Part shown: in pieces, positions 26,575 to 61,141 of the stretch
Layout of the letters: each line of letters starts with the position of its first letter
Numbering within the stretch: position 1 is the first letter of the stretch
Assembly (NCBI GenBank): GCA_963715985.1
Contig: CAVQSP010000014.1
Coordinates: forward strand, 576,001-640,000
From: an uncultured Thermoleophilia bacterium
GTDB taxonomy: Bacteria > Actinomycetota > Thermoleophilia > UBA2241
Length of the DNA: 64,000 nucleotides
Reading direction: 5' to 3'
Program-made: the position numbers and the translations under genes
The notes under the pieces: model-generated
Seen by the model: the letters and a program-made list of their open reading frames with translations, nothing else
Databases searched by the model: none
What the model was told of the DNA's origin: nothing

Positions 26575-26666
26575 CGCTCGCTGCACGCACGTGACTGCGG
26601 ACGGCGCGCGTTGGCTCGGCGAAGTCGCCGCCAGTTCCTGGCAGAGATCGGCAGACAGGGGGAGAG

Positions 26667-27893: not shown

Positions 27894-27902
27894 CGTGACA
27901 CT

Positions 27903-27940
27903 GTGCGGCCCGGCGCTGACCGCGCCGCGCCGGGCCGCAC
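27903..27940 (+). terminator. Hairpin after the SBP gene (mRNA stabiliser or partial terminator)
   Basis: Perfect 14-bp stem GTGCGGCCCGGCGC / GCGCCGGGCCGCAC with a 10-nt loop. Confidence 0.55.
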
Positions 27941-28010
27941 ATCGCTCCCCGGCAGGCGAGAGGGAGATGTGGCGGCGCGGCTGCTGTGATGCCTTTGCAG
28001 GAAGGATGAG

Positions 28011-31429: not shown

Positions 31430-31590
31430 GGCGACGGCGTTCGGGTCGCCGAGGGTCGCCGCGCTCGCCGCGGGTACGTGACGGTGGTGTGGCGGTCCGA
31501 AGCCGGGGTTCTCGCCGGCGAGACGCCCGCATTCGCCGTCGCGAGACGCACGCCGCTGAGAAAGCCGGTGCAAGCCGAGGGATGGGAGTG

Positions 31591-33669: not shown

Positions 33670-33699
33670 CGTCATGGCACCCGACAGTGCGGAGGTCCA

Positions 33700-43645: not shown

Positions 43646-43689
43646 CGCGCGGACGCCGCGGCAGCGGCGGGGAAGGACGGCTGGACCAC

Positions 43690-44349
43690 GTGGACACGCA
43701 CCCGACCATCGCAGCCATCATCAGCGCCTTCACGGAGGCCGACTTCGACGCCGTCCCCGGCCTCGTGGAGAAGGGCCTTGGACAAGGTCTGACGGCGCAG
43801 GCTCTGCTGGATGACGGCCTTGTGGCCGGTATCCGCGACGTGGGGGAGATGTTCCGGCGCGGCGAAGTCTACCTGCCGGAGATGATGCTGGCGGCGGAAG
43901 CCTGGCAGTCCGGCATGGACGTGCTGGCGCCCCAGCTCGCCGAGCGCGCCGCCGCGGAGCCGAAGGGAACGGTGGTCATCGGCACCGTGAAGGGCGACAT
44001 CCATTCGCTCGGCAAGACCATCGTGTCCACCATGCTCAGGACCGCCGGGTTCGAGGTCGTCGATCTCGGCACCGACGTGCCGGCGTCTCGCTTCATCACG
44101 GCAGCCACCGACGCGCGTGCCACGGTGATCGCCGCGTGCGCCTTGATGACGACGACGATGCCGCAGCAGCGCGAGGTGGTGGAGCACGCCGTGGCCGCCG
44201 GGAGGCGTGACGAGCTGTTCATCATGATCGGGGGAGCCTCCACCAGCCCGGCGTGGGCCGTGGAGATCGGCGCGGACGGCCACGGGGAGACGGCTGCCGA
44301 CGCAGTGGCTCTCGCCGAGGACTTCGTCGGCCGGGTCGTGAGGAGCTGA
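43690..44349 (+). CDS. Corrinoid protein (MtmC/MtbC-like), copy 3
   Basis: YLPEMMLAA, GTVKGDIHSLGK, DLGTDVP, ALMTTT, IMIGGA, EIGAD. Confidence 0.93.
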   Translation: MDTHPTIAAIISAFTEADFDAVPGLVEKGLGQGLTAQALLDDGLVAGIRDVGEMFRRGEVYLPEMMLAAEAWQSGMDVLAPQLAERAAAEPKGTVVIGTVKGDIHSLGKTIVSTMLRTAGFEVVDLGTDVPASRFITAATDARATVIAACALMTTTMPQQREVVEHAVAAGRRDELFIMIGGASTSPAWAVEIGADGHGETAADAVALAEDFVGRVVRS

Positions 44350-44351
44350 CG

Positions 44352-45780
44352 ATGCTGGGCAACCTGGAGATCTATCGCCGCGCGACGACCGGCGAGATCT
44401 GCTCGGAGAAGGACTTCGACCTGCGTCGCTTCATCCCGGCCCTGCGGAGGCTGGTGAAGGCTCACGGGATCGTCTGCGACCGCAGTACGCCGGTGCCGGC
44501 GGACGACGACCTCGCCGACCGCGTCTGGCAGGCCGGCCGCGAACTGTTCCTGGAAGTGGGGGTGTTCTGCCCCGACACCGAACGGGTCATCCGGTTCGAC
44601 GCGGCGGAGCTCGACCAGGCCCTGGCACACGCGCCGCGCCCGGTGGTGGTCGGCAGCGGACAGTTCGCGCGGACGATCCCGGTGCGGCGTCCGGAGAGCG
44701 CGACGCTCCCGTTCTTCTCGCTGGGGGCCTGCGGCGCCGGCGTGACCAGCGACGAGGTGTTCATGAGCCTCACGCAGGCGTATTGCGAGCTGCCGTACAT
44801 CGACGCCATCGCCATGCCGGCGCTCACCCGAGATCGACGGCATGACCATCGTGGCGGGCAGCCCGCTCGAGGTCGAGGGATGCGTGCGTACGGTGACGAT
44901 GGCGCGCGAGGCGACACGGCGCGCGAACAAGGCGGGAATGGGGATCGCCAACACCGTGCCGACCGGCGTGCGCTCGCAAGGGCACATCGCCGGCAATGCA
45001 GCCGCGGCCGACCAGTGGGACATGATGGAGATAGGCGGTCACGCGGAGTTCAAGGTCGACTTCGACAGCCTGAGCAAGATCGCGTACATGCAGGGCCGGG
45101 GCCGGACGATCCTCGGAGAGACGGGGCCTCTGCTCGGCGGCTATGCCGGCGGTCCCGAAGGCTGCGCCGTCGCCCTTGCCGCCTACCACTTCTTCGCCCT
45201 GCTGGTGCTCCGTGCAGCCGTGCAGCACCCGTTCACGTCGCACTTCCAGACGCAGTCCTGTACCTCGCGGGAGGCCATCTGGCTGCGCTCGGTCGCTCTG
45301 CAGGCCATCACGCGGCACAGCGACGTGCCGTGTCTGGAGTCGGGCACCTACGCGGCCGGGCCGGGCACCGAGATGAGCCTTTTCGAGGCCGCCGCGATGG
45401 CGGCTCCCAGTGTGGTGTCGGGCGGCAGCGTCGAGTCGGGGCCGACAGCGCGGGCGACGCACCTCGATCACCTCTCGCCGATGGCGAACCTCTTCGCCGC
45501 CGAAGTGGGACGCTCAGTGGCCGGCATGTCCCGCACCGACGTCAACGACCTCGTGGTGCGTCTGCTGGACAAGTACGAGGATCACCTCACCGACCCGCCC
45601 TTCGGGCGGCGCTACCAGGAGTGTTACGACATGGCCAGCCGGCAGCCGGACGCCGAGGCGAGGGCGGTGTATCGGACGGCCCGAGCGGCGGTGGCAGCCA
45701 TGGGCCTGGAGTTCCGCGACCCGCGCGTTCTACGACTGAGGACGGGCGTGAAGCGCTGCGCCGACCTACTGGAGGTGTGA
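44352..45780 (+). CDS. Monomethylamine methyltransferase MtmB-family protein, pyrrolysine-free (frameshift near 44828)
   Basis: RATTG...EKDFD, VPADDDLADRVWQAG, GVFCPDTERVIRF, RRPE, GSPLE, AGMGIAN, EFKVD, LGGYAGGPEG, AGPGTEM, LLDKYE, GRRYQECYD; directly follows the corrinoid gene. Confidence 0.88.
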
Positions 45781-45782
45781 AG

Positions 45783-47453
45783 ATGAAGCTGACGGGAGCG
45801 CAGTACCTCGCCCGCACGCTTGAGGGCTACGGCGTGACGCACTTCTTCCACGTGCCGGCCATCATCCCGTGGACGCTTGCGCAGATGGAGGAGACAGGGC
45901 GCATCACCCGAGTGGTCACGCACGACGAACGTGCGGCCGGGTACATGGCCGACGGGTACGCGCGCGCCTCCGGGCGCCCGGGCGTGTGCGGCTGCCAGAT
46001 GATCGGGACGAACAACCTGGCGGCCGGACTGCGGGACGCCTTCATGGCGCGTTCCCCGGTGCTGGCGTTCAGCGGCGGCTCCTACGTGAGATCCCGCCAC
46101 CGCCACCAGTATCAGGAGATCGACGGCTTGCCCGTGTTCGCCCCGGTCACCAAGTTCAACGTGCAGGTCGATGACGTGACCCGGTTGCCGGACCTGCTGC
46201 GTCAGGGCTTCCGCGCCGCCACGAGTGGCAAGCCGGGGCCGGTCCACCTGGCGCTCGAGGGGCACTTCGGCGAGGAGACGGAGCTCCAGGAGGCGGAGCT
46301 CGACGATCTCGTCGAAGAGCGGTTCGCCGGCGTACCGCCGTTCCGGCCTCTGCCTCAGGCGGATCAGGTGACCGCTGCCGTCCGGCTGCTGGTGGAGGCG
46401 GAGCGCCCCGTGCTCGTCGCGGGCGGCGGCGTGCGCCAGTCCGGCGCCGGCTCCGAGCTGCTCGCGCTCGCGGAGCTTCTGTCTGTCCCGGTGGCCACCT
46501 CGCTCAACGCGAAGGACGTCATACCGGGCGACCACCCGCTGGCCCTGGGCGTCCCCGGGCTGTACCAGCGTGAGAGCGCCAACCGGGCACTCCTGGAGGC
46601 GGATCTCGTCTGCTACGTCGGCAGCCAGACCGGCAGCCAGGTGACCAGGAACTGGACGATCCCTCTTCCGGGCACGAGGGTCGTGCAGATAGACGTAGAC
46701 CCTGAGGAGCTGGGCCGGCACTACCCGAACGCCGTGTCGGTCCTCGGCGATGCCAAGCTCACGCTCGGCCAAATGGCTGAGGCCGTCGAGGCACCCGTAC
46801 GGCGGCCGGCCTGGACGGCGCGCGCCGCGGAGCTCGTGGCCGCGTGGCGCGCCTCGGTGGACGAACACGTGACCAGCGACGCGGCGCCGATGCGGCCGGA
46901 GCGCCTGCTGGGCGAGCTCGGCCGCGTCCTGCCCTCGGACAGCATCGTCGTCGCCGACACCGGCCACGCCGGCTTCTGGACGGGGACCTACCTCGACCTC
47001 ACACGACCCGGCCAGGGCTTCCTGCGGGCCGCGGGCTCGCTGGGCTGGGGTTTCCCGGCCGCGCTGGGTGCCAAGATGGCCGTCGGTGACGAGCGGTCCG
47101 TGGTCCTGTTCACGGGGGACGGCGGCCTCTGGTACCACCTCGCGGAGATCGAGACGGCGCTGCGCTGGGGCGTCAAGGTCGTCGTCGTGGTCAACGACAA
47201 CCATTCCATGAACGAGCAGATCCCCTTCTACGAGCCGATGTACGGCGGCCGGCTGCACGGGCGGCACGAGGACCTCTGGGTCTTCCGCGAGGTCGACTTC
47301 GCGGCGGTGGCGACATCGCTCGGAGCCATCGGCCGCCGCGTCGAACGGCCTCGGGACTTCGCTCCTGCCCTCGAGCAGGCCCTCGAGGCCGATCGGCTCA
47401 CTGTGCTCGATGTGCTCACCGACATCGAGGCGGAATGTCCCTGGGGCGCTTGA
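45783..47453 (+). CDS. Thiamine diphosphate-dependent enzyme (acetolactate synthase-like)
   Basis: HDERAAGYMADGYARASGRPG, YQEID, GPVHL, GSLGWGFPAALG, GDGG...NDN. Confidence 0.92.
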   Translation: MKLTGAQYLARTLEGYGVTHFFHVPAIIPWTLAQMEETGRITRVVTHDERAAGYMADGYARASGRPGVCGCQMIGTNNLAAGLRDAFMARSPVLAFSGGSYVRSRHRHQYQEIDGLPVFAPVTKFNVQVDDVTRLPDLLRQGFRAATSGKPGPVHLALEGHFGEETELQEAELDDLVEERFAGVPPFRPLPQADQVTAAVRLLVEAERPVLVAGGGVRQSGAGSELLALAELLSVPVATSLNAKDVIPGDHPLALGVPGLYQRESANRALLEADLVCYVGSQTGSQVTRNWTIPLPGTRVVQIDVDPEELGRHYPNAVSVLGDAKLTLGQMAEAVEAPVRRPAWTARAAELVAAWRASVDEHVTSDAAPMRPERLLGELGRVLPSDSIVVADTGHAGFWTGTYLDLTRPGQGFLRAAGSLGWGFPAALGAKMAVGDERSVVLFTGDGGLWYHLAEIETALRWGVKVVVVVNDNHSMNEQIPFYEPMYGGRLHGRHEDLWVFREVDFAAVATSLGAIGRRVERPRDFAPALEQALEADRLTVLDVLTDIEAECPWGA

Positions 47454-47489
47454 CTCTGTGAAGCGCACGAACGTAAGGAGCCGGATGCC

Positions 47490-48521
47490 GTGAACACACC
47501 GACGTACGCGCCGCCTGACGGCGCCGAGGTGATCCGAACGATCGACGTCCACGCCGCCGGAGAGCCTGTGCGGGTCATCGTGGAGGGCCTCGCTGCCATT
47601 CCCGGAGCCGACATGCTGGCGAAGCGCCGCTATGCCCAGGAGCACCTCGACGCTCTCCGCCGTCGGCTCATGTGGGAGCCCCGCGGACACGCCGACATGT
47701 ACGGCGCGATCCCCACGGAGCCAGTCACCGACGACGGCGACTGCGGGGTGCTGTTCCTGCACAACGAGGGCTTCAGCACCATGTGCGGGCACGGCATCAT
47801 CGGCCTCACGAAGATCCTGCTCGAGACGGGGATGGTGACGCCCGGGGAGGGCACGTCGACCGTCCGCATCGACACGCCCGCGGGCCGCGTCGTAGCCCGC
47901 GCGACTGCGGATCGCGGGACCGTCCGGGAGGTCGTGTTCGACAACGTGCCGTCGTTCGTGTACCGGCGAGGAATCGAGGTCGGCCTCGCCGGCATCGGCA
48001 AGACCATCTGCGACATCGCCTTCGGCGGCGCGTACTACGCGTTCTGCAACGCCGCCGACCTGGGCCTGACTTTGGAGCCCGCGCAGCACGACCGCCTGAT
48101 CGAGGTCGGCAGACTCGTCAAGAAGGCGGTGCTGGCGCAGACGGCCATCGAGGACCCGGTCGCTCCCGACCTCGGGTTCCTCTACGGCGTCATCTTCACC
48201 GGTCCGCCGGCCGCGGCGGGCCACCACAGCCGCCACGTCTGCGTCTTCGCCGAGGGCGAAGTGGACCGCTCGCCCACGGGCACCGGAGTCAGCGCGCGTG
48301 CCGCCCTGCTGAGCGAGGCGGGGCAGTTGCCTGACGGTGAGCCCATCATGATCGAAAGCATCCTCGGCACATGCTTCGGCGTGGCGGTGGTGGGCCACTC
48401 CAGGGTCGGTCCGTTCCCCGCAGTGATCCCGGCCGTCTCCGGGGAGGCGTACGCGACGGGGATGAGCACCTTCTTCGTGGAGCGCGGTGACCCGCTCGGT
48501 GACGGCTTCATCTTCAGATGA
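47490..48521 (+). CDS. Proline racemase superfamily, Cys/Thr type (trans-3-hydroxyproline dehydratase-like)
   Basis: HAAGEP, EPRGHADMYG, TMCGH and DRSPTGTG. Confidence 0.88.
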   Translation: MNTPTYAPPDGAEVIRTIDVHAAGEPVRVIVEGLAAIPGADMLAKRRYAQEHLDALRRRLMWEPRGHADMYGAIPTEPVTDDGDCGVLFLHNEGFSTMCGHGIIGLTKILLETGMVTPGEGTSTVRIDTPAGRVVARATADRGTVREVVFDNVPSFVYRRGIEVGLAGIGKTICDIAFGGAYYAFCNAADLGLTLEPAQHDRLIEVGRLVKKAVLAQTAIEDPVAPDLGFLYGVIFTGPPAAAGHHSRHVCVFAEGEVDRSPTGTGVSARAALLSEAGQLPDGEPIMIESILGTCFGVAVVGHSRVGPFPAVIPAVSGEAYATGMSTFFVERGDPLGDGFIFR

Positions 48522-48603
48522 CCGGCGCGCGATCCATCCGCGTGCTGCCCCTCCGTCCGTTGGCGGCCCTCGCTGCCGCCGGTGGGTCGAGCAAGGACGG
48601 GAC

Positions 48604-49578
48604 GTGAGGTACGCCGGCCTCTGTACTTCCGTGCTTGAGGCGATCGGCCAGACACCGCTCGTCGAGCTCGGCAGGATCGGCGTGCCGTACGGCGGCCGGA
48701 TCCTCGCCAAGCTCGAGTACCTGAACCCCGGGCACTCGAAGAAAGACCGCATCGCCCTGGCGATGATCGAGGAGGCCGAGCGCTCGGGTGCGCTAGCTCC
48801 CGGGCAGACAGTGGTCGAGCTCACGAGCGGCAACTGCGGTACGGGCCTCGCCATCGTGTGCGCCGTGACGGGTCACCCTTTCGTCGCGGTCATGTCGCGC
48901 GGAAACACCATCGAGCGCGCCCGCATGATGGCTGCGCTGGGCGCCGAGGTCGTGCTCGTCGACCAGCTGCCAGGCTCGACTCCAGGCCAGGTCTCGGGCG
49001 GGGACCTCGACCTCGTCGAGCGGGAGACTCTGCGGGTGGTGCGCGAGCGGGGCGCCTTCCGCGCCAACCAGTTCGAGCTGGCCGCCTGCGTCGATGCGCA
49101 CTACGCCCATACTGCTCGCGAGCTCCTCGAGCAGTCTGGGGGAAACGTGACCGCCTTCTGCGATTTCGTCGGCAGCGGCTCCACGTTCACGGGGTGCGCG
49201 ACCGCTCTCAAGGAGTACGACCCCTTGATCTGCTGCTACGTGGTCGAGCCGCGCGGGGCCGCCGTGCTCTCGGGACGGGAGCTCCAGAACCCCAGCCATC
49301 GCATCCAGGGCGGCGGATACGCACGCGCGCACCTTCAGCTCATGCGCACCGACCTGGTCGATGGCTATCTGCAGATCAGCGACGAACAGGCGATCGCCAC
49401 CGCCCGCGATCTTGCGCGGCGGGAGGGCCTGTTCGCCGGGTTCAGCTCCGGAGCGAACGTGGCCGCCGCTCTCCAGCTGCTCAAAGGACCGCACCGCGGC
49501 GGCACCGTGGCCGTGCTCCTCTGCGACAGCGGGATGAAGTACTTGAGCACCGATCTGTGGCCCTCGGCGATCGATTGA
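48604..49578 (+). CDS. PLP-dependent cysteine synthase family protein, atypical
   Basis: IGQTPL, KLEYLNPGHSKKDR, TSGNCG, NQF, HRIQG, EGLFAGFSSGAN, DSGMKYLST. Confidence 0.88.
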   Translation: MRYAGLCTSVLEAIGQTPLVELGRIGVPYGGRILAKLEYLNPGHSKKDRIALAMIEEAERSGALAPGQTVVELTSGNCGTGLAIVCAVTGHPFVAVMSRGNTIERARMMAALGAEVVLVDQLPGSTPGQVSGGDLDLVERETLRVVRERGAFRANQFELAACVDAHYAHTARELLEQSGGNVTAFCDFVGSGSTFTGCATALKEYDPLICCYVVEPRGAAVLSGRELQNPSHRIQGGGYARAHLQLMRTDLVDGYLQISDEQAIATARDLARREGLFAGFSSGANVAAALQLLKGPHRGGTVAVLLCDSGMKYLSTDLWPSAID

Positions 49579-49627
49579 CGGGTGAGCGCATGACTCTTAG
49601 TATCTCGCTCGTATACACGCTGCATCC
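49575..49627 (+). promoter_or_regulatory. sigma70 promoter P4 with phased heptamers
   Basis: TTGACG-N17-TAGTAT; AGTATCT (49599), CGTATAC (49610), TGCATCC (49621). Confidence 0.7.
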
Positions 49628-49731
49628 GGAGATATCGCGCAGCAGGCGCGACCAGCCGGGGCAATCGACTGCGGATCCTCGGAGGAGTCTCTCCTCTTCG
49701 ACCGACAGCACGCGGACGGGGGGTTGATCTG

Positions 49732-50688
49732 ATGAACCAGTACATGTGGGCCTACGCCGACCCGTATCAGTGGATGGAGCGCACGGCGAAGTTCCCGCCG
49801 ATGATCGTCACCTGCGCGGTGGACGGCGGCATCCAGGGCAAGGAGAGTCATCCGGCGCTTCCCGAGCTGCCCGACGAGATCGCCCTGGAGTGCCAGGCGG
49901 CCTACGAGGCCGGCGCATCGATCGTGCACATCCACGGTCGGGACCCCGACAACTTCACCAACTGCACCGATGACCCCGAGGTGTACCGGGACATCCTTGG
50001 ACGCGTGCGCGAGAAGTGCCCCGAGCTGATCATCAACATCACCACAGGCGGCGGTCCCACGACCACCGACGAGGGCCGAGTGGCCATCCTCGACGCCGGG
50101 CCAGAGATGGCGACCCTGAACCTCGGTCCGGACATGGAGCGCTTCGAGCTCGCGGAACGTAAGCCGCCGCTGCCGCACCCCCGCGAGGCGATGGTCGTCG
50201 ACATGGTCATGCCGTTCACCTACGGCTTCATCGACCGGCTCGCCGGCGTGATGCTGGAGAAGGGCATCAAGCCGGAGCTCGAGATCTACCAGCCCGGCCA
50301 GTACTGGGTGAGTCGCGGGCTGGCGGAGCGGGGCCTCATCAAGCCTCCGTACTCGCACCAGTTCGTCATGGGCGTGCAGACGGCCATCTACCCGACACCC
50401 TGGAACGTGCTGGCGATGCTGAGCGAACTCCCCGACGACTCGGTGTTCACGGTCGCCGCCATCGGCAAGTTCCAGTGGCCCCTCATCACCATGGGCATCA
50501 TCCTCGGCGGCAACGTGCGCGTGGGCCTCGAGGACAACCTGTACGAGCGACGCGGCCGCAAGCTGACGGGGAACGGCGAGGCGGTACAGAAGGCCGTGCG
50601 CCTCGCCCGGGAGTTCGGCCGCGAGATCGCCACGCCGGCCCAGGCGCGCGAGATGCTGGGGCTGTCGGCCACACCAAGCAGCTACTGA
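49732..50688 (+). CDS. Beta-keto acid cleavage enzyme (BKACE/DUF849, Kce-like)
   Basis: IVTCAVDG, PALP, AGASIVHIHGRD, NITTGG, PEMATLN, IKPELE, GGNVRVGLEDN. Confidence 0.93.
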   Translation: MNQYMWAYADPYQWMERTAKFPPMIVTCAVDGGIQGKESHPALPELPDEIALECQAAYEAGASIVHIHGRDPDNFTNCTDDPEVYRDILGRVREKCPELIINITTGGGPTTTDEGRVAILDAGPEMATLNLGPDMERFELAERKPPLPHPREAMVVDMVMPFTYGFIDRLAGVMLEKGIKPELEIYQPGQYWVSRGLAERGLIKPPYSHQFVMGVQTAIYPTPWNVLAMLSELPDDSVFTVAAIGKFQWPLITMGIILGGNVRVGLEDNLYERRGRKLTGNGEAVQKAVRLAREFGREIATPAQAREMLGLSATPSSY

Positions 50689-50703
50689 GCGGGGGAGTCA
50701 GTC

Positions 50704-51943
50704 ATGGAGGACGAAGAAGTCACGCGAGCTCTTCGAGCGTCTCGCGAAGGTCATGCCCGGTGCGAGCACCCGTACCGTCACTCACTACGACCCCTTCCCG
50801 ATCGCGCTCGAGCGCGGACAGGGCTGCCGTCTCTGGGACGTCGACGGCAACGAGTACATCGACCTGCTCAACAACTACACCGCCCTCGTGCACGGTCACA
50901 ACCACCCGGCCATCGTTGAGGCCCTCGCTCGCACGGCGACGGGGGCGCTTATCCGCGGCCGTGCCGGCGCCCATCGAGCTGCAGGGCGAGTTGGCGTAGC
51001 GCGCTGTGCGCGCGCACGCCCTCCATCGACCGCGTGCGCTTCACCAACTCGGCCTCGGAGGCCGTGATGATGGCTGTCCGCGTAGCCCGCGCCTACACCG
51101 GGAAGGACGACTTCATCATGCCGGCCAACGGCTATGGCGGGGGCTGGGACCAGGTGATGCTGGCCGGCACAGACGAGGAGCATCCAGAGGGCTCCCAGGG
51201 CAACGTACCGGCAGGCATCCCGAAGATCCTGACCGAGGTCGTCCACTTCGTGCGCTTCAACGACCTCGGGCACTTGGAGCAGGTGCTGGACGACGCACGG
51301 CCCCACCACCGCGGCCGTCCTGCTCGAGCCGATCCTTGGACACACCGTCGTGCCCGGCGACCCCGACTTCGTCCGTGCCGCCCTACGCCTGGCGCACGAG
51401 CACGGAGCACTCCTGATCCTGGACGAGACCATCACCTCGCGCCTGTACGTGGGCGGCTGGCAAGCCGAACACGGCATTGAGGCCGACCTGACCACTCTCG
51501 GCAAGACGATCGGCGGCGGCACACCGGTCGGTGCGTTCGGCGGCAAGGAGCACGTGATGCGCATCCTCGACCCGCGCGCGGACGACGCCCTCGCCGCGCA
51601 TGGGACCATGAACGGCAGCCCGCTGTGCATGGCCGCCGGCTGCGCCAGCCTCGACCTGCTGACGCAGGAGGCCATCGACCGCATCAACGGCATGGGCGAC
51701 TTCCTCACCTCTGAGCTCGACGTCATCGGCCGCGAGGCCGGCGTGCGCGTGCACAACTACGGTTCTCTGCTCCAGGTCATGGCCCCCGACATCCTCGCGT
51801 TCCACCGAGCCTGCCTCGAGGAAGGGCTGTACATCGCCCCGCGCGGCAGCATGAACCTGTCCACCGTGATGGACGACGAAGTCCTCGGGGAGATCGCTGC
51901 GGCCTGGGCACGCGCCGTGGAGCGGACCAGCACCGCGCACTGA
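50704..51943 (+). CDS. Class III aminotransferase (GSA aminomutase-like), several frameshifts
   Basis: MPGASTR, LWDVDGNEYID, HGHNHP, RFTNSASEA, ARAYTG, LILDE, LTTLGKTIGGG, HGTMNG. Confidence 0.85.
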
Positions 51944-52001
51944 AGGTCCGGCCCACGAGCAGTCCGTCCAGTCCAGAACTGACGAAGGAGAGCGCGTCAC
52001 G

Positions 52002-53447
52002 ATGGCGACCAAGACCGTGTCCTTGCTGAGCGAGGAGGCGCTGGACCGCATCCACGCCGAGTCCCTGAGGATCCTCGAGAACATCGGTGTGCGCGTGGAG
52101 AACGCCGGGTGTCGCGACGTGCTCATCAAGGCGGGCGCCGTGGCCGTTGGGCAGACGGACGTCCTGCGGCTGCCGGCGACCATGGTCGGGGAGGCCATGG
52201 CGCAGATCACCAAGACGTACGACCTCGTACACCCCGGGGGTGCGCGCATCAGGACGCCGGACGGCAGGCAGCACGCCGGCGTGCGCGTCAAGATGCCCAA
52301 GGTGCTCGACTACGGCGCCGACCACTTCCGGCCGCCGCGCCGCCAGGACGTGATCGACCTGTGCCGCATCACCAACGCCCTTCCCGGCGCCGAGTTCACG
52401 GTGGCCATCCAGTACCCGAGCAGCGACGTCCCGGTCGAGATCGACGTCGCCGACAGCCTCGGGCTGGTGCTGGCCATCACCGGCAAGCTCAGCCTGCTGG
52501 CCCCCGGCACCGTGGACGACGCCCGCACCTCGCTGGATCTGACGATGGCGGCGGCCGGCACCGACGATCTGGACCGCGACCCTGCCACCTGGGTGGAGAT
52601 CAACACCACGACGCCCCTCGTGCTCGGGCGCCGTGAGGGCGACATCATCCTGCACGTCGTCGGGCGCTGCTGCCCGGTGGACGTGGGGCCGATGCCGATC
52701 GCCGGCGTCGCGACGCCGGCGACGCTGGCCGCCAACCTCGCGCTCGGCAACGCCGAGGCGCTCTTCCTGTGCACCCTCGCCAACGCCATCTGGCCCGGCG
52801 CCAAGATCCTCCACGCCACGACCGGCTCGCTGATGAACATGCGCACCGGGTATCTCTCGATGGGCTCGGCCGAGACCTGTCTCCTGAGCAGCGGAGAGAT
52901 GGCGCTCGCCAAGTACTACGGGCTGCCGAGCACGCGCATGGGCGGCTACAGCGACTCCCAGTGGCCAGACGTGCAGGCTGGGATCGAGAAGGCCATGGCG
53001 CTGCTCATCCTCGCGCAGAGCGAGGCCGACTTCGTCACCATGGGCGGCCCCCTCGACAACGCGGCGCACCACAGCTACGAGCAGGTGGTCATCGACCACG
53101 ACATCTGGGAGATGGCGCAGCGGCTCACCACCGAGATCGTGGTCGACGACGCCACGCTGGCCTACGACGTCATCGAGAAGGTCGGCCCGGGCGGCTCGTT
53201 CCTCGGCGAGAGGCACACCAGGCGCGCCGTACAGGCGGGCGAGCACTACTACGGCGGCTCGTTCAACCACATGGGGCGCACGGGTCAGGAGTACACGATG
53301 CTGGCGCGGGCGCACCAGAGGGTGCAGGACATCCTGGCGCAGCCGTTCGAGTTCGGCGCGCCGCCGGACGCGGTGCTGCGCGTCAAAGACTACGTGCGCG
53401 CGCACGCCCTGGAGAAGGGCGTCGCGCCGCCGGCGTGGACGGAGTGA
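52002..53447 (+). CDS. Trimethylamine methyltransferase MttB superfamily protein, pyrrolysine-free
   Basis: RIHAESLRILENIG, AGVATPATLA, NAEAL, MNMRTG, GSAE, YYGLP, SDSQWPDVQAGIEK, SYEQVVID, VGPGGSFLGERHT. Confidence 0.92.
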   Translation: MATKTVSLLSEEALDRIHAESLRILENIGVRVENAGCRDVLIKAGAVAVGQTDVLRLPATMVGEAMAQITKTYDLVHPGGARIRTPDGRQHAGVRVKMPKVLDYGADHFRPPRRQDVIDLCRITNALPGAEFTVAIQYPSSDVPVEIDVADSLGLVLAITGKLSLLAPGTVDDARTSLDLTMAAAGTDDLDRDPATWVEINTTTPLVLGRREGDIILHVVGRCCPVDVGPMPIAGVATPATLAANLALGNAEALFLCTLANAIWPGAKILHATTGSLMNMRTGYLSMGSAETCLLSSGEMALAKYYGLPSTRMGGYSDSQWPDVQAGIEKAMALLILAQSEADFVTMGGPLDNAAHHSYEQVVIDHDIWEMAQRLTTEIVVDDATLAYDVIEKVGPGGSFLGERHTRRAVQAGEHYYGGSFNHMGRTGQEYTMLARAHQRVQDILAQPFEFGAPPDAVLRVKDYVRAHALEKGVAPPAWTE

Positions 53448-53520
53448 CGCCGGCGCGGGCCTGGGCCGAGGGCCAGGACTGAGCGCCGGCGCCGGAGCAA
53501 GATCTTCGAGGAGGCGGAAC

Positions 53521-54372
53521 GTGGCGAAGAAGAGCGTCTTCGACCTGCACGAGATGAAGCGCGCCGGCGAGCAGATCGCCTGGCTCACCGCCTACGACTA
53601 CCCGACGGCGCAGTTCGAGGAGGCGGCCGGCGTCGACATGATCCTCGTCGGCGACTCGCTGGGCATGTGCGTCTACGGCTACCCCGGCACCGTCCCGGTG
53701 ACGATGGACCAGTGCCTCGTGCACAGTGAAGCGGTGCGCCGCGGCGCCCCGGACACCTTCGTCCTCGGCGACATGCCGCTGGGCAGCTACCAGGCCTGCG
53801 ACGCAGACGCCGTGCGCAACGCCATCCGCTTCCTGAAAGAGGCGAACGTCGACGCCGTCAAGCTCGAGGGCGGCGTGCGCACGCTCTCCCGCGTCACGGC
53901 GATCCTCGCGGCCGGCGTCGCCGTCTGCGGCCACATCGGGCTCACGCCGCAGTCCTCGGGGCAGCTCGGCGGGCACAAGGCGCAGGGCCGCACCCTCGCC
54001 TCGGCCCAGCTCGTCGTCGAGGACGCCCGCGCCCTCTACGAGGCCGGCGTCCAGCTCCTCCTCGTCGAGGCCGTGCCCCCCGAGGTCGCCGCCTTCATCG
54101 CCCGCGAGCTGCCCATCCCCGTGCTCGGCATCGGGGCGGGGGCGGACGTTGACGGGCAAGTGTTGATCGTCAGCGACGTTCTCGGCACCTTTCAGGCGTT
54201 CACGCCGAAGTTCGTCAAACGGTACGCCGACCTCGCCGAGGTCGCGACGTCGGCCTTGCGGGAGTACGTCTCCGACGTGAGGAGCGGAGCCTTTCCGGAG
54301 GAGACTCACTGCTACCGCATGCTGGACGGCGAGCACGAGCGGTTCGCCGCCTGGGCGCGGGAGTCCCGATGA
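53521..54372 (+). CDS. panB: 3-methyl-2-oxobutanoate hydroxymethyltransferase
   Basis: LTAYD, ILVGDSLG, DMP, KLEGG, GHIGLTPQ, GIGAG, DGQVL, PKFVKRY. Confidence 0.93.
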   Translation: MAKKSVFDLHEMKRAGEQIAWLTAYDYPTAQFEEAAGVDMILVGDSLGMCVYGYPGTVPVTMDQCLVHSEAVRRGAPDTFVLGDMPLGSYQACDADAVRNAIRFLKEANVDAVKLEGGVRTLSRVTAILAAGVAVCGHIGLTPQSSGQLGGHKAQGRTLASAQLVVEDARALYEAGVQLLLVEAVPPEVAAFIARELPIPVLGIGAGADVDGQVLIVSDVLGTFQAFTPKFVKRYADLAEVATSALREYVSDVRSGAFPEETHCYRMLDGEHERFAAWARESR

Positions 54373-55595
54373 TCTCGCGCACGGTCGCACCGGGGTTCCT
54401 TGCGGCGCAGCGCGTCGACCGCCTCGGTACGGAGCTGGTCTTCGAGGTGGCGGAGGAGGCGAAGGCGCTGGCCGCACGTGGCCGCGCCGTGTATCCCTTC
54501 CACATGGGTGAGCTGGACTTCGCGACCGCCGACCACATCGTCGAGGCCTGCGCCCGGGCGCTCAGGGACGGCAAGACCAAGTACACGCCCAACGGCGGCC
54601 TGCCCGCGCTGAGAGAGGCGCTGGCGGAGGACGTCGCCGCAGAGCGCGGAGTCGTCTACGGCCCGGACAACGTCGCCATCCAGCCCGCCGGCAAGCCCGT
54701 GATCGGCAAGTTCCTGCTGACGCTCATGGACCCCGGAGACGAGGTGCTCTACCCGAACCCCGGGTTCCCCATCTACAGCTCGCTCATCGACTTCTTCGGC
54801 GGCGTCGCCGTGCCGTATCCGTACCTCGAACGCGCGGACGGCTTCCACATCGACCTCGACAGGCTTGAGAGCAGCATCACCCCGCGCACGCGCCTCCTCA
54901 TCCTCAACGACCAGCACAACCCCACAGGCGGCGAGTGCACGCCCCCCGAGCAGGCACGCCTCGCGGAGCTCGTGCTCCGCCACAACCTGTTCGTGCTCTC
55001 CGACGAGGCCTACTTCGCGATCCGCTACGAGGGTGAGAGCCGGTCCATCGTGTCGCTGCCCGGCATGGCCGAGCGGACCGTCATCCTCTACACCTTCGGC
55101 AAGAAGTACGCGATGACGGGGTTCCGCCTGGGCGCTGCCATCGGACCCCGCCCGGTGATCGATGTGATCGTCCGGCTGAACGTCAACTGGGAGGCCTGCT
55201 GCAACGAGTTCGCACAGTACGGCGCGGTGGCGGCGCTGACCGGTGACCAGGCGTCCCGTCTGCGCATGCTCGACGTGCTGCGCGAGCGGCGGGACGCGGG
55301 CGCTGCGATCCTGGACGACACGCCGGGCATCGTTTGCCGGCGACCCGACACCACGTTCTACCTGTACCCCAACGTCACCGGCGCAGTGCGCCTGTGCGGT
55401 TGTGACGACCACGAGACGTTCCGGCGCCTGGTGCTCGAGAAGACGGGCGTGTCGTTCTGTACGCGGCCGCAGTTCGGCACGCCGCTGCCCGGGGAGCGCG
55501 ACTACTTCCTGCGCATCTCCTACTCCGGCCTCACGACTGCACTCATTGAGGAGGGCCTGGGCGAGCTGCGGTCGTTCTTGCGCACCTTGTCCTGA
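54369..55595 (+). CDS. Class I/II (aspartate-type) aminotransferase
   Basis: GELDF, KYTPNGG, PGDEV, NPTG, SDEAY, TFGKKYAMTGFRLG, FYLYP. Confidence 0.92.
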   Translation: MISRTVAPGFLAAQRVDRLGTELVFEVAEEAKALAARGRAVYPFHMGELDFATADHIVEACARALRDGKTKYTPNGGLPALREALAEDVAAERGVVYGPDNVAIQPAGKPVIGKFLLTLMDPGDEVLYPNPGFPIYSSLIDFFGGVAVPYPYLERADGFHIDLDRLESSITPRTRLLILNDQHNPTGGECTPPEQARLAELVLRHNLFVLSDEAYFAIRYEGESRSIVSLPGMAERTVILYTFGKKYAMTGFRLGAAIGPRPVIDVIVRLNVNWEACCNEFAQYGAVAALTGDQASRLRMLDVLRERRDAGAAILDDTPGIVCRRPDTTFYLYPNVTGAVRLCGCDDHETFRRLVLEKTGVSFCTRPQFGTPLPGERDYFLRISYSGLTTALIEEGLGELRSFLRTLS

Positions 55596-55802
55596 CCACC
55601 ATCCCGAATCCGGCACCTCGCGACCTCGAAGCACCGCCGGTCAGGGCCGGCTGCGATCCGGCGGCGACCACAGGACACACCAGGTCGAACCTATGGTTAG
55701 CCTCTGTTGCATCGGACTCCCTGGGGAGCGACGCTGTGAGGCGTCAAGTGGAGCCACTGCCCCGGGCAGCTCGTGCGGGGCCGAGCGCAGAGGAGACGGT
55801 CG

Positions 55803-58800
55803 ATGAGCACCCTCAGCCCGCGACGTCACAGCGATCCCGGGACGCGGACCGCAGGCCGCGACGACGTCGAGGCCGCCATCCGCGCCAAAGCGCACGAGCT
55901 CTTCACGCTCGTCGGACGGCATCGGTCCTCGCCGTTGACGGGTGAGCGCTGGCAGAGCGAGATGATGGCCTGGGCCACGGCGGACGAGCGGCTCAAGATC
56001 GAGCTCTTCCGCTTCATCGACGTGTTCCCGACGTTGCGCACCGGGGCCGACATCCAGCGTCATCTGCGCGAGTACCTCGACCAGCCTGGTCTGGCGACGC
56101 CACGGCTCCTGCGCGCCGGCCTCGCGGCCTCGCGGGAGCGCCACGTGGCACCGCTGGCCGCGGCCCTGATCCGGCGGCAGATGCTGAGCTTCGCGCGGCG
56201 CTTCATCGTCGGCCGCGATGCCGAGGACGCCCTTCCGGCACTCCGTGCGCTGCGCCGCCGCGGCATGGGATTCACGCTCGACGTGCTCGGCGAGGCCTCC
56301 GTGGGAGAACTGGAGGTGGCGGCCTACCAGGAGCGCTACCTCCAACTGCTCGAGGGACTCCGTCACGAGGCCGAGAGCTGGCCCTTCGATCCCATCCTGG
56401 ACCGCGCGGCGTGGGGGCCGGTGCCACGCGTCAACGTCTCGATCAAGATCACGTCTCTCTATTCGCAGATAGACCCGCTGGCCTTCCGCCGCTCGGTGGA
56501 CGCGGTGAAGGACAGGCTGCGTCCGGTCCTTCGCAGGGCGGCAGCGACCGGCGCCTTCGTGAACCTCGACCTCGAGCAGTTCCGCTATCGCGATCTCACG
56601 TTCGCCGTGTTCAAGGAACTGCTGGACGAGGACGAGTTCGCGCACTACGACGAGGCCGGAGTGGTCGTGCAGGCGTACCTGCGTGACGCCGAGGCCGACA
56701 TCCGTGCACTCATCGAATGGGCACGCGAGCGCGGGCGCGTGGTCACGGTGCGCCTCGTGAAGGGCGCGTACTGGGACTACGAGACGGTGCAGGCGGCGCA
56801 GGAGGGGTGGCCGGCCCCGGTGTTCACGCACAAGCCTGATTCGGACGTGACGTACGAGCGCATCACGCGCCTCATGCTGGAGCATCCGGCGCAGATCCGC
56901 CCCGCCTTCGCCAGTCACAACGTGCGTTCGCTCGCCTGCGCCATCGCCACGGCGGAGTCGCTGGGGTTGGCGAGCGACGCGTTCGAGCTCCAGCTTCTGC
57001 ACGGCATGGGTGAGCCAATCAAGGCGGCGCTCAGAGCCATGGGCCTGCGCGTCAGGGAGTACGCGCCGGTCGGGGAGCTCATCCCCGGCATGGCGTACTT
57101 CGTCCGCCGCCTGCTCGAGAACACGGCCAACGAGTCGTTTCTGCGGCTCACCTTCGCCGAGGGCGAGGACCGGGAGCGCCTGGAGCGTGCGCCGCGGCCG
57201 TCGCCCGACGTGGACCGGCCGCCGCAGCGGCTGCCCGCCGGCGCGCCCACCCACGTCGCCTATCCCGGCGCGTTCACCAATCAGCCGCACGCCGACTTCT
57301 CGCGGGAGGAGAACCGGACGGCCTTCGCCGAAGCCCTTGCGCGCGTGAGCGCCGGCACGGCTGCAGCGGGGGTCGGCCACCACTGGCCGCTCTGGATCGA
57401 CGGGGAGGCCGTGGAGACCGTCGACACCCTGACGTCTGTCGAGCCTGCCCGGCCGCAACGGGTGGTCGGGACGGCGGCGTACGCGGGCCCCCTCGAGGCG
57501 GAGGGCGCGGTGGCCGCGGCGCGCGCTGCCTTCACGTCGTGGAGCGTCACGCCGCCGGCGGGGCGCGCGGAGGTCCTCTTCCGCGCCGCCGAGCTGATGC
57601 GCCGCGAGCTCTTCGAGCTCGCGGCCCTCGAGGTGTTCGAGGCGGGCAAGACGTGGCGGGAGGCCGATGCCGACGTCGGCGAGGCCGTCGACTTCCTCGA
57701 GTACTACGGGCGTGAGATCCTGCGGCTCGAGGCCGAAGGCCGACTGGCCGCCGGGGACGACCGCGGCGACGGCCTCCTGCGGCCCCTGGGCGTCGCCCTC
57801 GTCGTCGCCCCGTGGAACTTCCCCCTCGCCATCCTCACCGGGATGGCCAGCGCCGCCCTGGTCACCGGCAACACCGTCATCGTCAAACCGGCGGGGCCGA
57901 CACCGGTGATCGGCGCGCAGCTGGCGCGCATCCTGCACGCCGCCGGCGCGCCGCCCGGGACCTTCAACTACCTACCTTCGCCCGGCGCCACCGTGGGTGA
58001 CCTCCTCGTGCGGCACCCGGGCGTGGACATCATCGTGTTCACCGGCTCCAAGGACGTGGGTCTGCACATCATCGAGGAGGCGGCCTGCCACCCCACCTCT
58101 CGCGGCCTGAAGCGGGTGATCGCCGAGATGGGCGGCAAGAACGCGCTCATCGTCGACGCCGACGCCGACCTCGACGTGGCCGTGCAGGAGTCCGTCGTCA
58201 GCGCCTTCCACTTCCAGGGCCAGAAGTGCTCGGCGGCCTCCCGCATCATCGTCCTGGAGTCCGCCTACGACGAGTTCCTCGCGCGTTTCGTGGACGCCGC
58301 GCGATCAGTAACGGTCGGCCCGCCCGACGATCCCTCCAGCCGCATGGGCCCAATCATCTCGGATGAAGCGCGGAAGACCATCGAGGCCTACATCGAGCAG
58401 GGCCTGCGGGAGGGCCGGCCGGCCCTCGTGACGAGGCCGCCGGCCGGCGGCTGGCCCGATGGCGGCTTCTATGTCGGTCCGCACGTGTTCGCCGACGTCG
58501 CGCCGACGGCGGTCATCGCCCAGGAGGAGATCTTCGGACCCGTGGTGGCCGTGATCAAGGTCCGCGACATCGATGAGGCGCTCGCCGTCGCCAACGGCAC
58601 GGAGTACGCGCTCACCGGCGGGTTGATCTCACGAAGCCCGGCGACGATCGCCCGTGTGCGCCGCGAGTTCAAGGTCGGCAACCTCTACATCAACCGGGGC
58701 ACGACGGGAGCCCTCGTGGAGCGCCAGGCGTTCGGCGGCTTCAAGATGAGCGGCATCGGCAGCAAGGCCGGCGGTCCGGACTACCTCGTGCAGTTCCTGA

Positions 58801-59699
58801 GCGAGGCCGGGCCGGCCCGGCTCGACGCCGTCACACAGGCCGCGGTCGCGGCGCCGCTGCGGCAGTCTGCGTCGCCACCAGCGACGCCGACCGGGGGCAT
58901 GGAGGAGATGGGGCGGGAGGCCGCCGCCCTGGTTGTCGGCCGGGTCGCAGGCTCGGCCGGCGCGCTGGGACGCATGACGGCGGAGCAGCGCGCCGCCGCC
59001 GTCCGGCGCGCCGCACGGCTGGTGCGATCGAACGGCCGGGAGCTGCAGTCCGCGATGCTAGCCGAGGGGTCCTGCGCGGGCCCCGACGAGCTGCAGGACG
59101 CCGCTCGAGAGGTGGCCGAGGCGGCGGACGACCTCGACCTCATCGCGAAACTCAGCGGCGAGGTCGACCGCGTCCGCCGGATGGGCCACCAGCCGGGGGA
59201 GCTCAATCACTACTTCTATGAGCCGAGAGGACTGGTGCTGGCGCTGACCTCGTCTCGGCGCCCGCTCACGAGCGCCTGCGTTGCCGCCGGAGCGGCGCTG
59301 GCCGCCGGCGACCCCGTCGTGCTCAAGCCGGGGAGCCGCGCACGTTCCAGCACCCTCCTGATCGCTCGCCACCTTGTTGCCGCGGGCTTCCCTGCCGACG
59401 CCGTGGGGTTCGTCGCCGCGAGCGGCGACGCGCTAGGGGAGGAGCTGATCGCTCATCCCGACGTGAGTGTGGTGGCCTTCAGCGGTACGCGTCCGGTGGC
59501 GCTGCGAGTGGCGGCCGCAGTCGGGCGCCGGGGGGTGGGGGAGCGGGTCAAACGGCTCGTCGCCGATCTCGACCCCTCGCAGCCACGTCGCCCCTCGGCC
59601 GCCTACCTCGTGGAGTTCCTCGAGCCCCGCGTGGTCACGGAGAACACGTTGCGGCGCGGCTTCGCGCCGTCAGAAGACCTGGTCGAAGTGGCCCGGTGA
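55803..59699 (+). CDS. putA: Bifunctional proline dehydrogenase/GSA dehydrogenase PutA with an extra C-terminal ALDH-like domain
   Basis: LFRFIDVFP, DVLGE, VQAYL, RLVKGAYWD, FASHN, YFVRRLLEN; ALDH PWNFP, FTGS, EMGGKN, QGQKCSA, EEIFGP; ends VVTENTLRRGFAP. Confidence 0.93.
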   Translation: MSTLSPRRHSDPGTRTAGRDDVEAAIRAKAHELFTLVGRHRSSPLTGERWQSEMMAWATADERLKIELFRFIDVFPTLRTGADIQRHLREYLDQPGLATPRLLRAGLAASRERHVAPLAAALIRRQMLSFARRFIVGRDAEDALPALRALRRRGMGFTLDVLGEASVGELEVAAYQERYLQLLEGLRHEAESWPFDPILDRAAWGPVPRVNVSIKITSLYSQIDPLAFRRSVDAVKDRLRPVLRRAAATGAFVNLDLEQFRYRDLTFAVFKELLDEDEFAHYDEAGVVVQAYLRDAEADIRALIEWARERGRVVTVRLVKGAYWDYETVQAAQEGWPAPVFTHKPDSDVTYERITRLMLEHPAQIRPAFASHNVRSLACAIATAESLGLASDAFELQLLHGMGEPIKAALRAMGLRVREYAPVGELIPGMAYFVRRLLENTANESFLRLTFAEGEDRERLERAPRPSPDVDRPPQRLPAGAPTHVAYPGAFTNQPHADFSREENRTAFAEALARVSAGTAAAGVGHHWPLWIDGEAVETVDTLTSVEPARPQRVVGTAAYAGPLEAEGAVAAARAAFTSWSVTPPAGRAEVLFRAAELMRRELFELAALEVFEAGKTWREADADVGEAVDFLEYYGREILRLEAEGRLAAGDDRGDGLLRPLGVALVVAPWNFPLAILTGMASAALVTGNTVIVKPAGPTPVIGAQLARILHAAGAPPGTFNYLPSPGATVGDLLVRHPGVDIIVFTGSKDVGLHIIEEAACHPTSRGLKRVIAEMGGKNALIVDADADLDVAVQESVVSAFHFQGQKCSAASRIIVLESAYDEFLARFVDAARSVTVGPPDDPSSRMGPIISDEARKTIEAYIEQGLREGRPALVTRPPAGGWPDGGFYVGPHVFADVAPTAVIAQEEIFGPVVAVIKVRDIDEALAVANGTEYALTGGLISRSPATIARVRREFKVGNLYINRGTTGALVERQAFGGFKMSGIGSKAGGPDYLVQFLSEAGPARLDAVTQAAVAAPLRQSASPPATPTGGMEEMGREAAALVVGRVAGSAGALGRMTAEQRAAAVRRAARLVRSNGRELQSAMLAEGSCAGPDELQDAAREVAEAADDLDLIAKLSGEVDRVRRMGHQPGELNHYFYEPRGLVLALTSSRRPLTSACVAAGAALAAGDPVVLKPGSRARSSTLLIARHLVAAGFPADAVGFVAASGDALGEELIAHPDVSVVAFSGTRPVALRVAAAVGRRGVGERVKRLVADLDPSQPRRPSAAYLVEFLEPRVVTENTLRRGFAPSEDLVEVAR

Positions 59700-59797
59700 C
59701 TCGTCGTCCACACCCGGGCCGCGCTCCCGTCACGGCTTCGGGGCTGAGGCGTTGTCCGTGGGTCACGATGCTGGAAGACTGAGCGTTCGCGAGCCCC

Positions 59798-61124: not shown

Positions 61125-61141
61125 GAGGGGCACACTGCTCC

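Follow-up and report, generated by a model that had tools for sequence, protein, structure and literature searches.

Known non-pyrrolysine (non-Pyl) members of the MttB superfamily, as listed in PMC13080624, include MtgB (glycine betaine), MtpB (proline betaine), MtcB (carnitine), MtyB (gamma-butyrobetaine), and MthB (phosphocholine). In the MtmB family, MtqB is described as the only characterised non-Pyl member, and it demethylates the quaternary amines tetramethylammonium and choline (PMC13044021). Here, we describe a gene cluster in a stretch of 64,000 nucleotides (the window) from the metagenome-assembled genome (MAG) of an uncultured Thermoleophilia bacterium, in which homologues of both MtmB and MttB are encoded together with a corrinoid protein (CoP), importers, and a set of catabolic enzymes. 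We consider it most likely (probability about 0.6) that this is a real, conserved, and modular catabolic cluster of one Thermoleophilia-type family of Actinomycetota that serves the use of an imported N-methylated, carboxylate-bearing amine. This amine would be a betaine or an N-methyl derivative of an amino acid, and it may enter the cell as part of a peptide-like or opine-like conjugate.

Three described systems resemble parts of the locus. In the MtqB/MtqC system of Methanococcoides methylutens Q3c, for which conserved active-site Met/Cys positions are described, a Pyl-free MtmB-family protein is encoded directly after its corrinoid protein, as in the window; compared by its published description rather than by sequence, that system differs in that the window system is bacterial and belongs to a catabolic, not a methanogenic, cluster, and the methyl acceptor is presumably tetrahydrofolate here and coenzyme M there (PMC13044021). 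In the LhpH/LhpI pathway of trans-3-hydroxy-L-proline (T3LHyp) in T. litoralis, Azospirillum, and mammals, the Cys-Thr type of the proline-racemase fold is reported as T3LHyp dehydratase, and proline dehydrogenase is clustered with the dehydratase in T. litoralis (PMC4141209). A Cys-Thr enzyme and PutA are likewise present here; however, the dehydratase-type gene is set among B12 methyltransferases, and no reductase of the OCD/mu-crystallin or LDH2 families was detected among the window genes scanned by Pfam. In a variant lysine fermentation pathway, the HemL-like acyl-CoA beta-transaminase Kat adjoins kce (PMC3149608), just as BKACE adjoins a HemL-like class-III aminotransferase (AT3) in the window; unlike in that pathway as reported, lysine aminomutases and 3,5-diaminohexanoate dehydrogenase are absent here, and BKACE scored under the Kce cut-off. 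Literature searches returned no description of this cluster, only papers on single families. A search requiring two of the three terms N-methylproline, corrinoid, and MttB gave no mention of N-methylproline among the matches listed.

Methyltransferase homologues and the corrinoid protein

Gene order was established from Pfam and NCBIfam scans guided by a map of third-position G+C. With a G+C content of about 70%, the window has almost all of its genes on the + strand, to which the coordinates below refer unless stated otherwise. The CoP gene (43690..44349; Pfam B12-binding_2 and B12-binding) is the sole corrinoid gene inside the cluster, and its NCBIfam match is MtbC/MtgC-like, under the cut-off. 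It is followed by the MtmB homologue (44352..45780), the frame of which is broken near 44829-44833 in the assembly. PF05369 matches this gene over its full length across the two frames (positions 5-450). A version read through the break by a four-letter step (P0001) was used as the database query. Through its close relative P0002 (97-98% identical to P0001), residues 6-454 were aligned with MtmB1 of M. barkeri (1L2Q; E 1.2e-60). The homologue is therefore alike over its full length to MtmB1, the Pyl-dependent monomethylamine methyltransferase (1L2Q/1NTH), but differs from it in that Pyl202 aligns to Ala199, encoded by a sense codon, whereas genuine TAG-containing MtmB genes lie elsewhere in the same genome. 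Neither frame piece contains a stop, so that no in-frame UAG occurs at the Pyl202 position. As judged from this alignment, the MtmB homologue is non-Pyl.

The nearest named records belong to MAGs labelled Thermoleophilia, Actinomycetes, and Anaerolineales. A single-sequence contig search with the C-terminal part of the MtmB homologue gave no match; alignment-based searches found relatives. More distant clades of MtmB (35-50% identity) mostly have the gene paired with a corrinoid protein only, often in tandem copies, and distant non-Pyl MtmB genes several times adjoin a class-III aminotransferase. These neighbours are a weak hint that the MtmB products may be non-quaternary amines.

The MttB homologue (52002..53447; Pfam MTTB) is covered by PF06253 over its full length (profile positions 30-493 of 500), its single open frame contains no UAG, and the Pyl of MttB (7XCL) aligns to Tyr316. 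Its sequence thus likewise indicates a non-Pyl enzyme, and the first-pass annotation of this DNA, which had read both methyltransferases as non-Pyl, is confirmed at the two Pyl columns. Conserved Arg312 of MtgB is described as binding the carboxylate and pairing with the acidic group of the substrate (PMC13080624). In a gapless part of the alignment, the column of R312 is occupied by Thr311 of the homologue, which places Arg312 one position off this column. The protein resembles the non-Pyl MttB superfamily in its full-length PF06253 match, the lack of an in-frame stop, and the Tyr in place of Pyl; it is unlike MtgB in that the match reached only about 144 bits and the glycine-betaine motif (Y97, R312, H348, F356) is not kept. 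At H348 the query lacks one residue, F356 is replaced by Ala, and Y97 by Met, where the Y97 region is poorly aligned and the chain numbering carries an offset of 2 that was worked out by hand. An MtgB-type assignment to glycine betaine was rejected, given the binding motif described in PMC13080624.

Gene order and conservation in related genomes

Upstream of the CoP gene, the scans revealed a Dpp/Opp-type ABC importer with an SBP_bac_5 binding protein (SBP5), two permeases, and a fused double ATPase (35939..41445), an NAD(P) dehydrogenase resembling opine dehydrogenases (OctDH-like; 41488..42600; Pfam Octopine_DH, E 3.7e-16), and an M19 (renal-type) dipeptidase (42638..43645; Pfam and PDB), which belongs to an add-on module with CoP and MtmB. 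Downstream of MtmB lie a thiamine pyrophosphate (TPP) enzyme of the acetolactate-synthase/2-oxo-acid decarboxylase family (45783..47453; Pfam, with its NCBIfam match under the cut-off), a Cys/Thr enzyme of the Pro_racemase family resembling 3-hydroxyproline dehydratase (ProRac; 47490..48521; Pfam), a CysK/CBS-like pyridoxal phosphate enzyme (PALP; 48487..49578; Pfam and NCBIfam), BKACE (49732..50688), AT3 (50702..51943), and the MttB homologue. PanB (53521..54372; Pfam and NCBIfam), a class-I/II aminotransferase whose gene overlaps that of PanB by 4 bases (AT12; 54369..55595; Pfam), and PutA (55773..59699) follow.

The proteins of the window were compared by tblastn with loci around MtmB relatives and around BKACE relatives. 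Locus L029 (80%) has the order GntR-SBP5-perm-perm-ATPase-OctDH-M19-CoP-MtmB-ProRac-BKACE-AT3-MttB-PutA-PanB. The same order without ProRac, perm-perm-ATPase-OctDH-M19-CoP-MtmB-BKACE-AT3-MttB, was found in L030 (genome G147), where the contig stops after MttB. L032 carries CoP, MtmB, ProRac, AT3, and MttB, with BKACE and GntR upstream and an M20 peptidase and an ADP-forming acyl-CoA synthetase (ACS) downstream; in L035, DHDPS-family, 3HCDH, and ILVD genes are inserted between MtmB and ProRac. Shorter arrangements were CoP-MtmB-ProRac in L097, CoP-MtmB in L099 (with ACS, MttB, AT3, and BKACE close by), and CoP-MtmB-TPP in L100. L188 (genome G198) has AT12-Dpp-OctDH-TPP-ProRac-BKACE-AT3-MttB-M20-ACS-GntR, and L031, from the Chloroflexota (Anaerolineales; MtmB 69%), has ACS, a Cys/Cys proline-racemase-family gene, BKACE, CoP, and MtmB.

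Individual genes followed this pattern. Orthologues of MttB matched at 73-86% in L029, L030, L032, L035, L099, and L188 (85% in the last), and the Dpp/Opp-type importer was kept in L029, L030, L032, L035, and L188. The OctDH-like gene had copies 41-50% identical in L029, L030, L035, and L188. M19 was present in L029 and L030, and an M20 peptidase 3' of MttB took its place in L032, L035, and L188. The TPP enzyme had an 83% orthologue at the same position in L188 and a 49% partial copy after MtmB in L100; its reading as an insert peculiar to the window was rejected. The same order recurs in independent MAG loci, and the grouping exceeds chance. The genes therefore do co-occur across genomes, as expected by the first-pass annotation.

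Phyletic counts were made in 300 genomes of the class plus that of the window (301 in total; E <= 1e-85 for MtmB and BKACE). The MtmB orthologue was found in 5 of these genomes, all in the family of the window, and the BKACE orthologue in 10, including all five with MtmB (78-100% identity in those). ProRac occurred in 6 genomes, four of them among the five with MtmB. None of the 24 genomes of the same genus had an orthologue of MtmB (best match 42%) or BKACE (best match 45%). Together with the joint counts of MtmB and BKACE, this indicates an accessory island that is present or absent as a whole.

The same comparisons bear on a different explanation, according to which no common pathway exists and independent modules are merely juxtaposed, held together by descent and shared regulation, with the two methyltransferases using unrelated substrates. 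The modules would be Liv-HyuAB (a second importer with a lactamase-family pair, described below), Dpp-OctDH-TPP-dehydratase-BKACE-AT3, M19-CoP-MtmB, MttB-PanB-AT12, and PutA. Several arrangements fit it: PanB-AT12-MttB-CoP sets at two other sites of the same genome (C9 and C3), BKACE-Liv-3HCDH-HyuAB in L192, CoP-MtmB alone in most of the distant loci, the L188 cluster without CoP-MtmB, and the presence or absence of PALP between strains. However, the order CoP-MtmB-(TPP)-dehydratase-BKACE-AT3-MttB is kept in several species with short gaps and on one strand, the MtmB and BKACE orthologues are jointly present or absent, and their pair recurs across phyla (L031). On balance, we regard unconnected modules as somewhat unlikely. 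The caution of the first-pass annotation about a possible second pathway within the island was well placed.

Enzymes predicted to act on the carbon skeleton

The Cys/Thr pair of ProRac, noted already in the first-pass annotation, was recovered in the motifs STMCGH and DRSPTGTG, which L029 and L035 share with the window. In the PDB search, ProRac was very close to 6R76/6R77 (E 8e-112), reported as the T3LHyp dehydratase TlLhpH of T. litoralis (PMC9309405); its match to NCBIfam NF045511 (345 bits) was under the cut-off of 540. PutA comprises PutA_N, Pro_dh, and Aldedh (P5C dehydrogenase) domains, and its TIGR01237 score (707 bits) exceeds the cut-off of 660. Among the loci compared, it was observed beside the cluster in just two cases, the window and L029, and in L029 a 69% orthologue comes after MttB. 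The OctDH-like protein (PDB relative 1BG6, E 7e-26) is a candidate imine reductase or beta-hydroxy-acid dehydrogenase and, from its family, the only candidate reductase of pyrroline-2-carboxylate in the window.

These enzymes invite a proline-betaine route, close to that of the first-pass annotation. The substrate would be a proline-type betaine or N-methyl(hydroxy)proline, for example stachydrine or 3-hydroxystachydrine; MttB would take the quaternary methyl and MtmB the remaining one on a shared CoP, and 3-hydroxyproline would be converted to pyrroline-2-carboxylate, then to proline by the OctDH-like enzyme and to glutamate by PutA. Two methyltransferases match the two methyls of a dimethylprolinium, a single corrinoid gene lies in the cluster, ProRac is close to TlLhpH, PutA comes next in both the window and L029, and the OctDH-like protein is related to the imine-reducing opine dehydrogenase 1BG6. 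The HemL-like aminotransferases that adjoin non-Pyl MtmB in several distant clades also hint at non-quaternary products. Nevertheless, the route accounts for five or six genes and leaves the conserved BKACE, HemL-like aminotransferase, TPP enzyme, and ACS idle. Genome G198 retains the dehydratase and MttB without MtmB or CoP, and G147 (L030) retains both methyltransferases without the dehydratase. The importer is of a peptide/opine type, not a betaine type, the top solved relative of its binding protein being AgaA (6HLX, E 7e-35). 3-Hydroxystachydrine, in addition, is a rare plant product. MtqB, according to PMC13044021, acts on quaternary amines. We therefore judge this route unlikely. Of the (hydroxy)proline-type substrate proposed earlier, the fit to the dehydratase and PutA stands, whereas the unused conserved enzymes are not explained by it. 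The proposed order, with MttB acting on the first methyl and MtmB on the last over a shared corrinoid protein, was conjectural from the outset: it is weakened by G198, which has MttB without M19, CoP, and MtmB, and by L031, which has CoP-MtmB-BKACE without MttB, while for a last methyl removed by MtmB the aminotransferase neighbours are a weak hint in favour and the reported substrates of MtqB (PMC13044021) speak against it.

BKACE, matched by Pfam PF05853 over positions 1-274 of 274 (287 bits), is the best-conserved gene of the cluster, its orthologues being 77-91% identical. Its top NCBIfam match is Kce (NF052387; 243 bits, under the cut-off of 382). The PDB relatives of AT3 are GSA aminomutases and beta-transaminases. 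Both genes would be central if the substrate were a beta-hydroxy or beta-amino acid betaine, such as a carnitine-like compound or an N-methylated beta-amino acid. Demethylation would be followed by a dehydrogenase or the HemL-like transaminase yielding a beta-keto acid, BKACE would convert this with acetyl-CoA to acetoacetate and an acyl-CoA, and ACS would release the free acid with formation of ATP. The conservation of BKACE and ACS agrees with this route, and BKACE accompanies the MtmB orthologue in 5 of 5 genomes and in the Chloroflexota locus L031. A gene of the 3-hydroxyacyl-CoA/carnitine-dehydrogenase family was found in L035 and L192, and one of 3-hydroxyisobutyrate-dehydrogenase type in L032. 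The Kce-Kat pair offers a precedent (PMC3149608), and the available part of the NetSyn preprint counts two known carnitine pathways among BKACE contexts; it mentions no corrinoid, racemase, or aminotransferase context. On the other hand, the 3-hydroxyproline-dehydratase-type enzyme, the TPP enzyme, and PutA would go unexplained, and the score of BKACE stays under the Kce cut-off (243 < 382). A route centred on BKACE alone thus appears improbable to us.

Frame breaks and strain variation

The MtmB-like gene lies in two frames, with Pfam positions 5-156 in one and 163-450 in the next, and a second extra base at about 45724 lengthens its 3' end; the true stop is probably at 45737-45739. AT3 is split into three frame pieces (50702-50971, 50935-51288, and 51293-51922), and the PAS and LuxR parts of a regulator downstream of PutA sit in different frames. 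Logan contigs of four wetland metagenome runs (X1-X4) were aligned to window positions 43600-61300; the contig pieces listed differ from the window by about 1-6 letters per 100 (e.g., 32 of 1,958). Base 44833 was omitted in one full-depth contig each of X2 and X3, X4 having no cover there, and a base at 45723/45724 was omitted in all four runs. The base at 60374, in the PAS-LuxR gene, was omitted in contigs of X3 and X4. P0002 reads ALTRVDGMTIV over the break and ends in DPAFYD, uninterrupted at both indel sites, and 53 of the 57 best database matches to P0001 (56-98% identity) are single-frame proteins of 461 amino acids. Thus, the MtmB gene is intact in close relatives. AT3 orthologues are single-frame in L029, L030, and L188. 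The frame breaks of this assembly are, in our view, very likely consensus errors.

A different reading takes the breaks in MtmB, AT3, and the PAS-LuxR gene as real, in which case the pathway would be non-functional in this strain. At least three breaks fall within 17 kb, whereas rpoB and rpoC each form an unbroken frame, many MttB paralogues of the genome are in pieces, and a low-depth X1 contig (depth 2.7) spans 44833 without the deletion. Set against this, near-identical contigs and P0002 are intact, every difference listed consists of one surplus base on the side of the window, and the long-read MAG loci L029, L032, and L035 show like breaks in other cluster genes. Decay of the pathway in this strain is therefore very unlikely.

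The contigs also revealed strain variation. The PALP region was replaced by 148 other letters in three of the four runs (X1, X3, and X4; joint 48521->49658), and PALP is strain-specific. Most of 48919-49509 was left uncovered by the wetland contigs.

Proposed function of the cluster

The identities of the genes, their conservation and modularity, and the absence of Pyl from both methyltransferases are observed directly in the sequences; every catalytic step of the degradation of an N-methylated carboxylate-bearing amine outlined here, as well as the substrate, is predicted from gene content. The Dpp-type ABC system would import the compound, and the M19 (or M20) peptidase may release it from a conjugate. 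The MttB homologue and, where present, the MtmB homologue would each pass an N-methyl group to the Co(I) of a corrinoid protein. From there, the methyl group would be transferred to tetrahydrofolate by a pterin-binding methyltransferase, and the corrinoid would be reactivated by RamA, both encoded elsewhere in the genome. The 3-hydroxyproline-dehydratase-type enzyme, the OctDH-like reductase or dehydrogenase, and the TPP enzyme could act on the demethylated skeleton, as could BKACE with the HemL-like (Kat-like) aminotransferase, the ADP-forming ACS with a gain of ATP, and PutA.

Several observations weigh against this proposal. No single known substrate employs all the conserved enzymes, most NCBIfam matches are under curated cut-offs, and, as noted above, Pfam scans of the window genes gave no pyrroline-2-carboxylate reductase of the OCD/mu-crystallin or LDH2 families. 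The L188 cluster of G198 has no M19, CoP, or MtmB, and in L031 no MttB gene lies in the 10 kb upstream or the 8 kb downstream. Since the methyltransferase modules are separable in this way, the genes need not form one linear pathway. Most of the conservation falls within one family, in which shared ancestry inflates synteny, and kin do not constitute an independent test. With regard to the frame breaks, the X1 contig without the deletion must be counted, as must the intact rpoB and rpoC, which show that assembly indel errors are not uniform, and the AT3 frameshift region (50860-51847), which the wetland contigs leave uncovered. The lone RNA run shares just 0.05 of words with the window.

Other candidate substrates were considered and set aside, each accounting for a subset of the conserved genes only: creatinine or N-methylhydantoin (HyuAB), pantothenate (PanB, peptidase, and beta-alanine), N-methyltaurine (aminotransferase and an Xsc-like TPP enzyme), trimethylornithine lipids, and agropinic-acid-like opines (AgaA-like binding protein, lactamase, and OctDH). 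A more far-reaching version of the proposal is that all N-methyl groups of a proline-type betaine or N-methyl amino acid are removed independently of oxygen, with a Pyl-free MtmB demethylating a tertiary or secondary amine and a 3-hydroxyproline-dehydratase-type enzyme in a new catabolic use, coupled to an energy-conserving branch of BKACE, the Kat-like aminotransferase, and the ADP-forming synthetase. We hold this version to be doubtful.

Accessory blocks and flanking genes

The true 5' start of the cluster is formed by the genes of ACS (23725..25743; Pfam CoA_binding, Succ_CoA_lig, and ATP-grasp_5, in two coding segments) and a GntR-FCD regulator (25875..26453; Pfam). ACS orthologues adjoin the cluster in L029, L032, L099, L031, and L188. 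A GntR copy 70% identical lies immediately 5' of SBP5 in L029, with further copies in L032, L099, and L188. The Pfam scans bore out the families named in the first-pass annotation and their positions, including the importers, HyuA/HyuB, and M19 upstream. That gene list missed this start, as well as the OctDH-like, TPP, and PALP genes, and the MtmB-like gene and the class-III aminotransferase that it named are frame-broken in the assembly.

Between the regulator and the Dpp/Opp-type importer, an accessory block comprises a Liv-type ABC importer (binding protein, two ATPases, and two permeases; 26664..31309; Pfam) and an ATP-dependent hydantoinase/lactamase-family pair, HyuA/HyuB (31351..35491; Pfam), for which the top NCBIfam match is caprolactamase CapA/CapB, under the cut-off. 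The block (26664-35491) is missing between GntR and SBP5 in L029. BKACE-Liv-3HCDH-HyuAB was observed in L192, from another family (HyuAB 65-66% identical), and HyuAB-BKACE in L191, from a third genome; the BKACE homologues near HyuAB in these two loci show 61-64% identity. HyuAB may thus be tied functionally to BKACE.

Downstream of PutA (Pfam, TIGR01237), the frameshift-split PAS-LuxR regulator (59786..61061), which had no match in related loci, is followed at its 3' side by pyrR, pyrB, and pyrC. Away from the cluster, at 3977-7739, the window contains two further corrinoid proteins (3977-4579, + strand; 7209-7739, - strand), each adjoining a URO-D-family (MtaA/MtbA-like) methyltransferase (4621-5880, +; 5995-7092, -), and a region with a MerR/TetR-type regulator precedes them. 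A Peripla_BP_6 binding-protein gene (1812-2785) is divided between two coding segments, which match profile positions 43-134 and 171-342, and its split is probably another assembly frame break.

Genomic context of the predicted B12-dependent demethylation

The genome is a 4.35-Mb MAG (completeness 88.8, contamination 7.29). The MtmB family is represented by 8 match pieces from 7 loci, and two of the pieces include an in-frame TAG; of 89 match pieces of the MTTB family, 11 carry one in-frame TAG. The C-terminal domain of PylS scored above its curated cut-off. These data imply a pyrrolysine-decoding actinobacterium, represented by a Thermoleophilia-like MAG; a literature search pairing Thermoleophilia with pyrrolysine gave nothing relevant, its single match being, from the part of it available, apparently unrelated. 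TAG-containing MtmB genes (E about 1e-199) lie past the window end at C14:682146-683495 and C14:690446-691795, and a further coordinate is C13:559328-560053. Two RamA-type activases and four Pterin_bind genes, one of them beside RamA, were found as partners in trans. With about 55-60 MttB-family genes in the genome, an MttB gene next to an MtmB gene is less remarkable than it first looked.

PanB (TIGR00222, 305.5 bits, above the cut-off of 207.55) is present at four paralogous loci, 87-93% identical (the window; C9:166310-170594; C3:5233-8833; C4:47206-48050), and two or three of the copies adjoin MttB genes; we therefore rejected the view that it serves as an ordinary housekeeping gene. The set PanB-AT12-MttB-CoP is found again at C9 and C3. 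About 9.7 kb at a contig end and a contig start (C9:161072-170748 and C3:1-9674) are 96.9% identical, which reflects either a strain duplicate in the bin or a recent duplication. The C4 copy is accompanied by an SBP_bac_5 gene and another BKACE, and an AT12 paralogue on C10 (C10:48018-49191) shares one open frame with GcvT and SHMT. This gene content suggests that PanB-AT12 may be a methylene-tetrahydrofolate-linked side module attached to MttB genes.

Implications

Homologues of MtmB without pyrrolysine are widespread, and just one of them has a demonstrated function (2026). The conserved cluster gives such a protein defined partner enzymes and hence a short list of candidate substrates, and it lets one ask whether non-quaternary N-methyl amines are demethylated on B12 without pyrrolysine. 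If the more far-reaching version outlined above is true, the non-Pyl MtmB family would gain its first bacterial function, in a chemistry for which only Pyl-containing enzymes have been known until now. The cluster further suggests that Thermoleophilia of soils and wetlands are overlooked consumers of methylated nitrogen compounds, from which methane and trimethylamine are formed.

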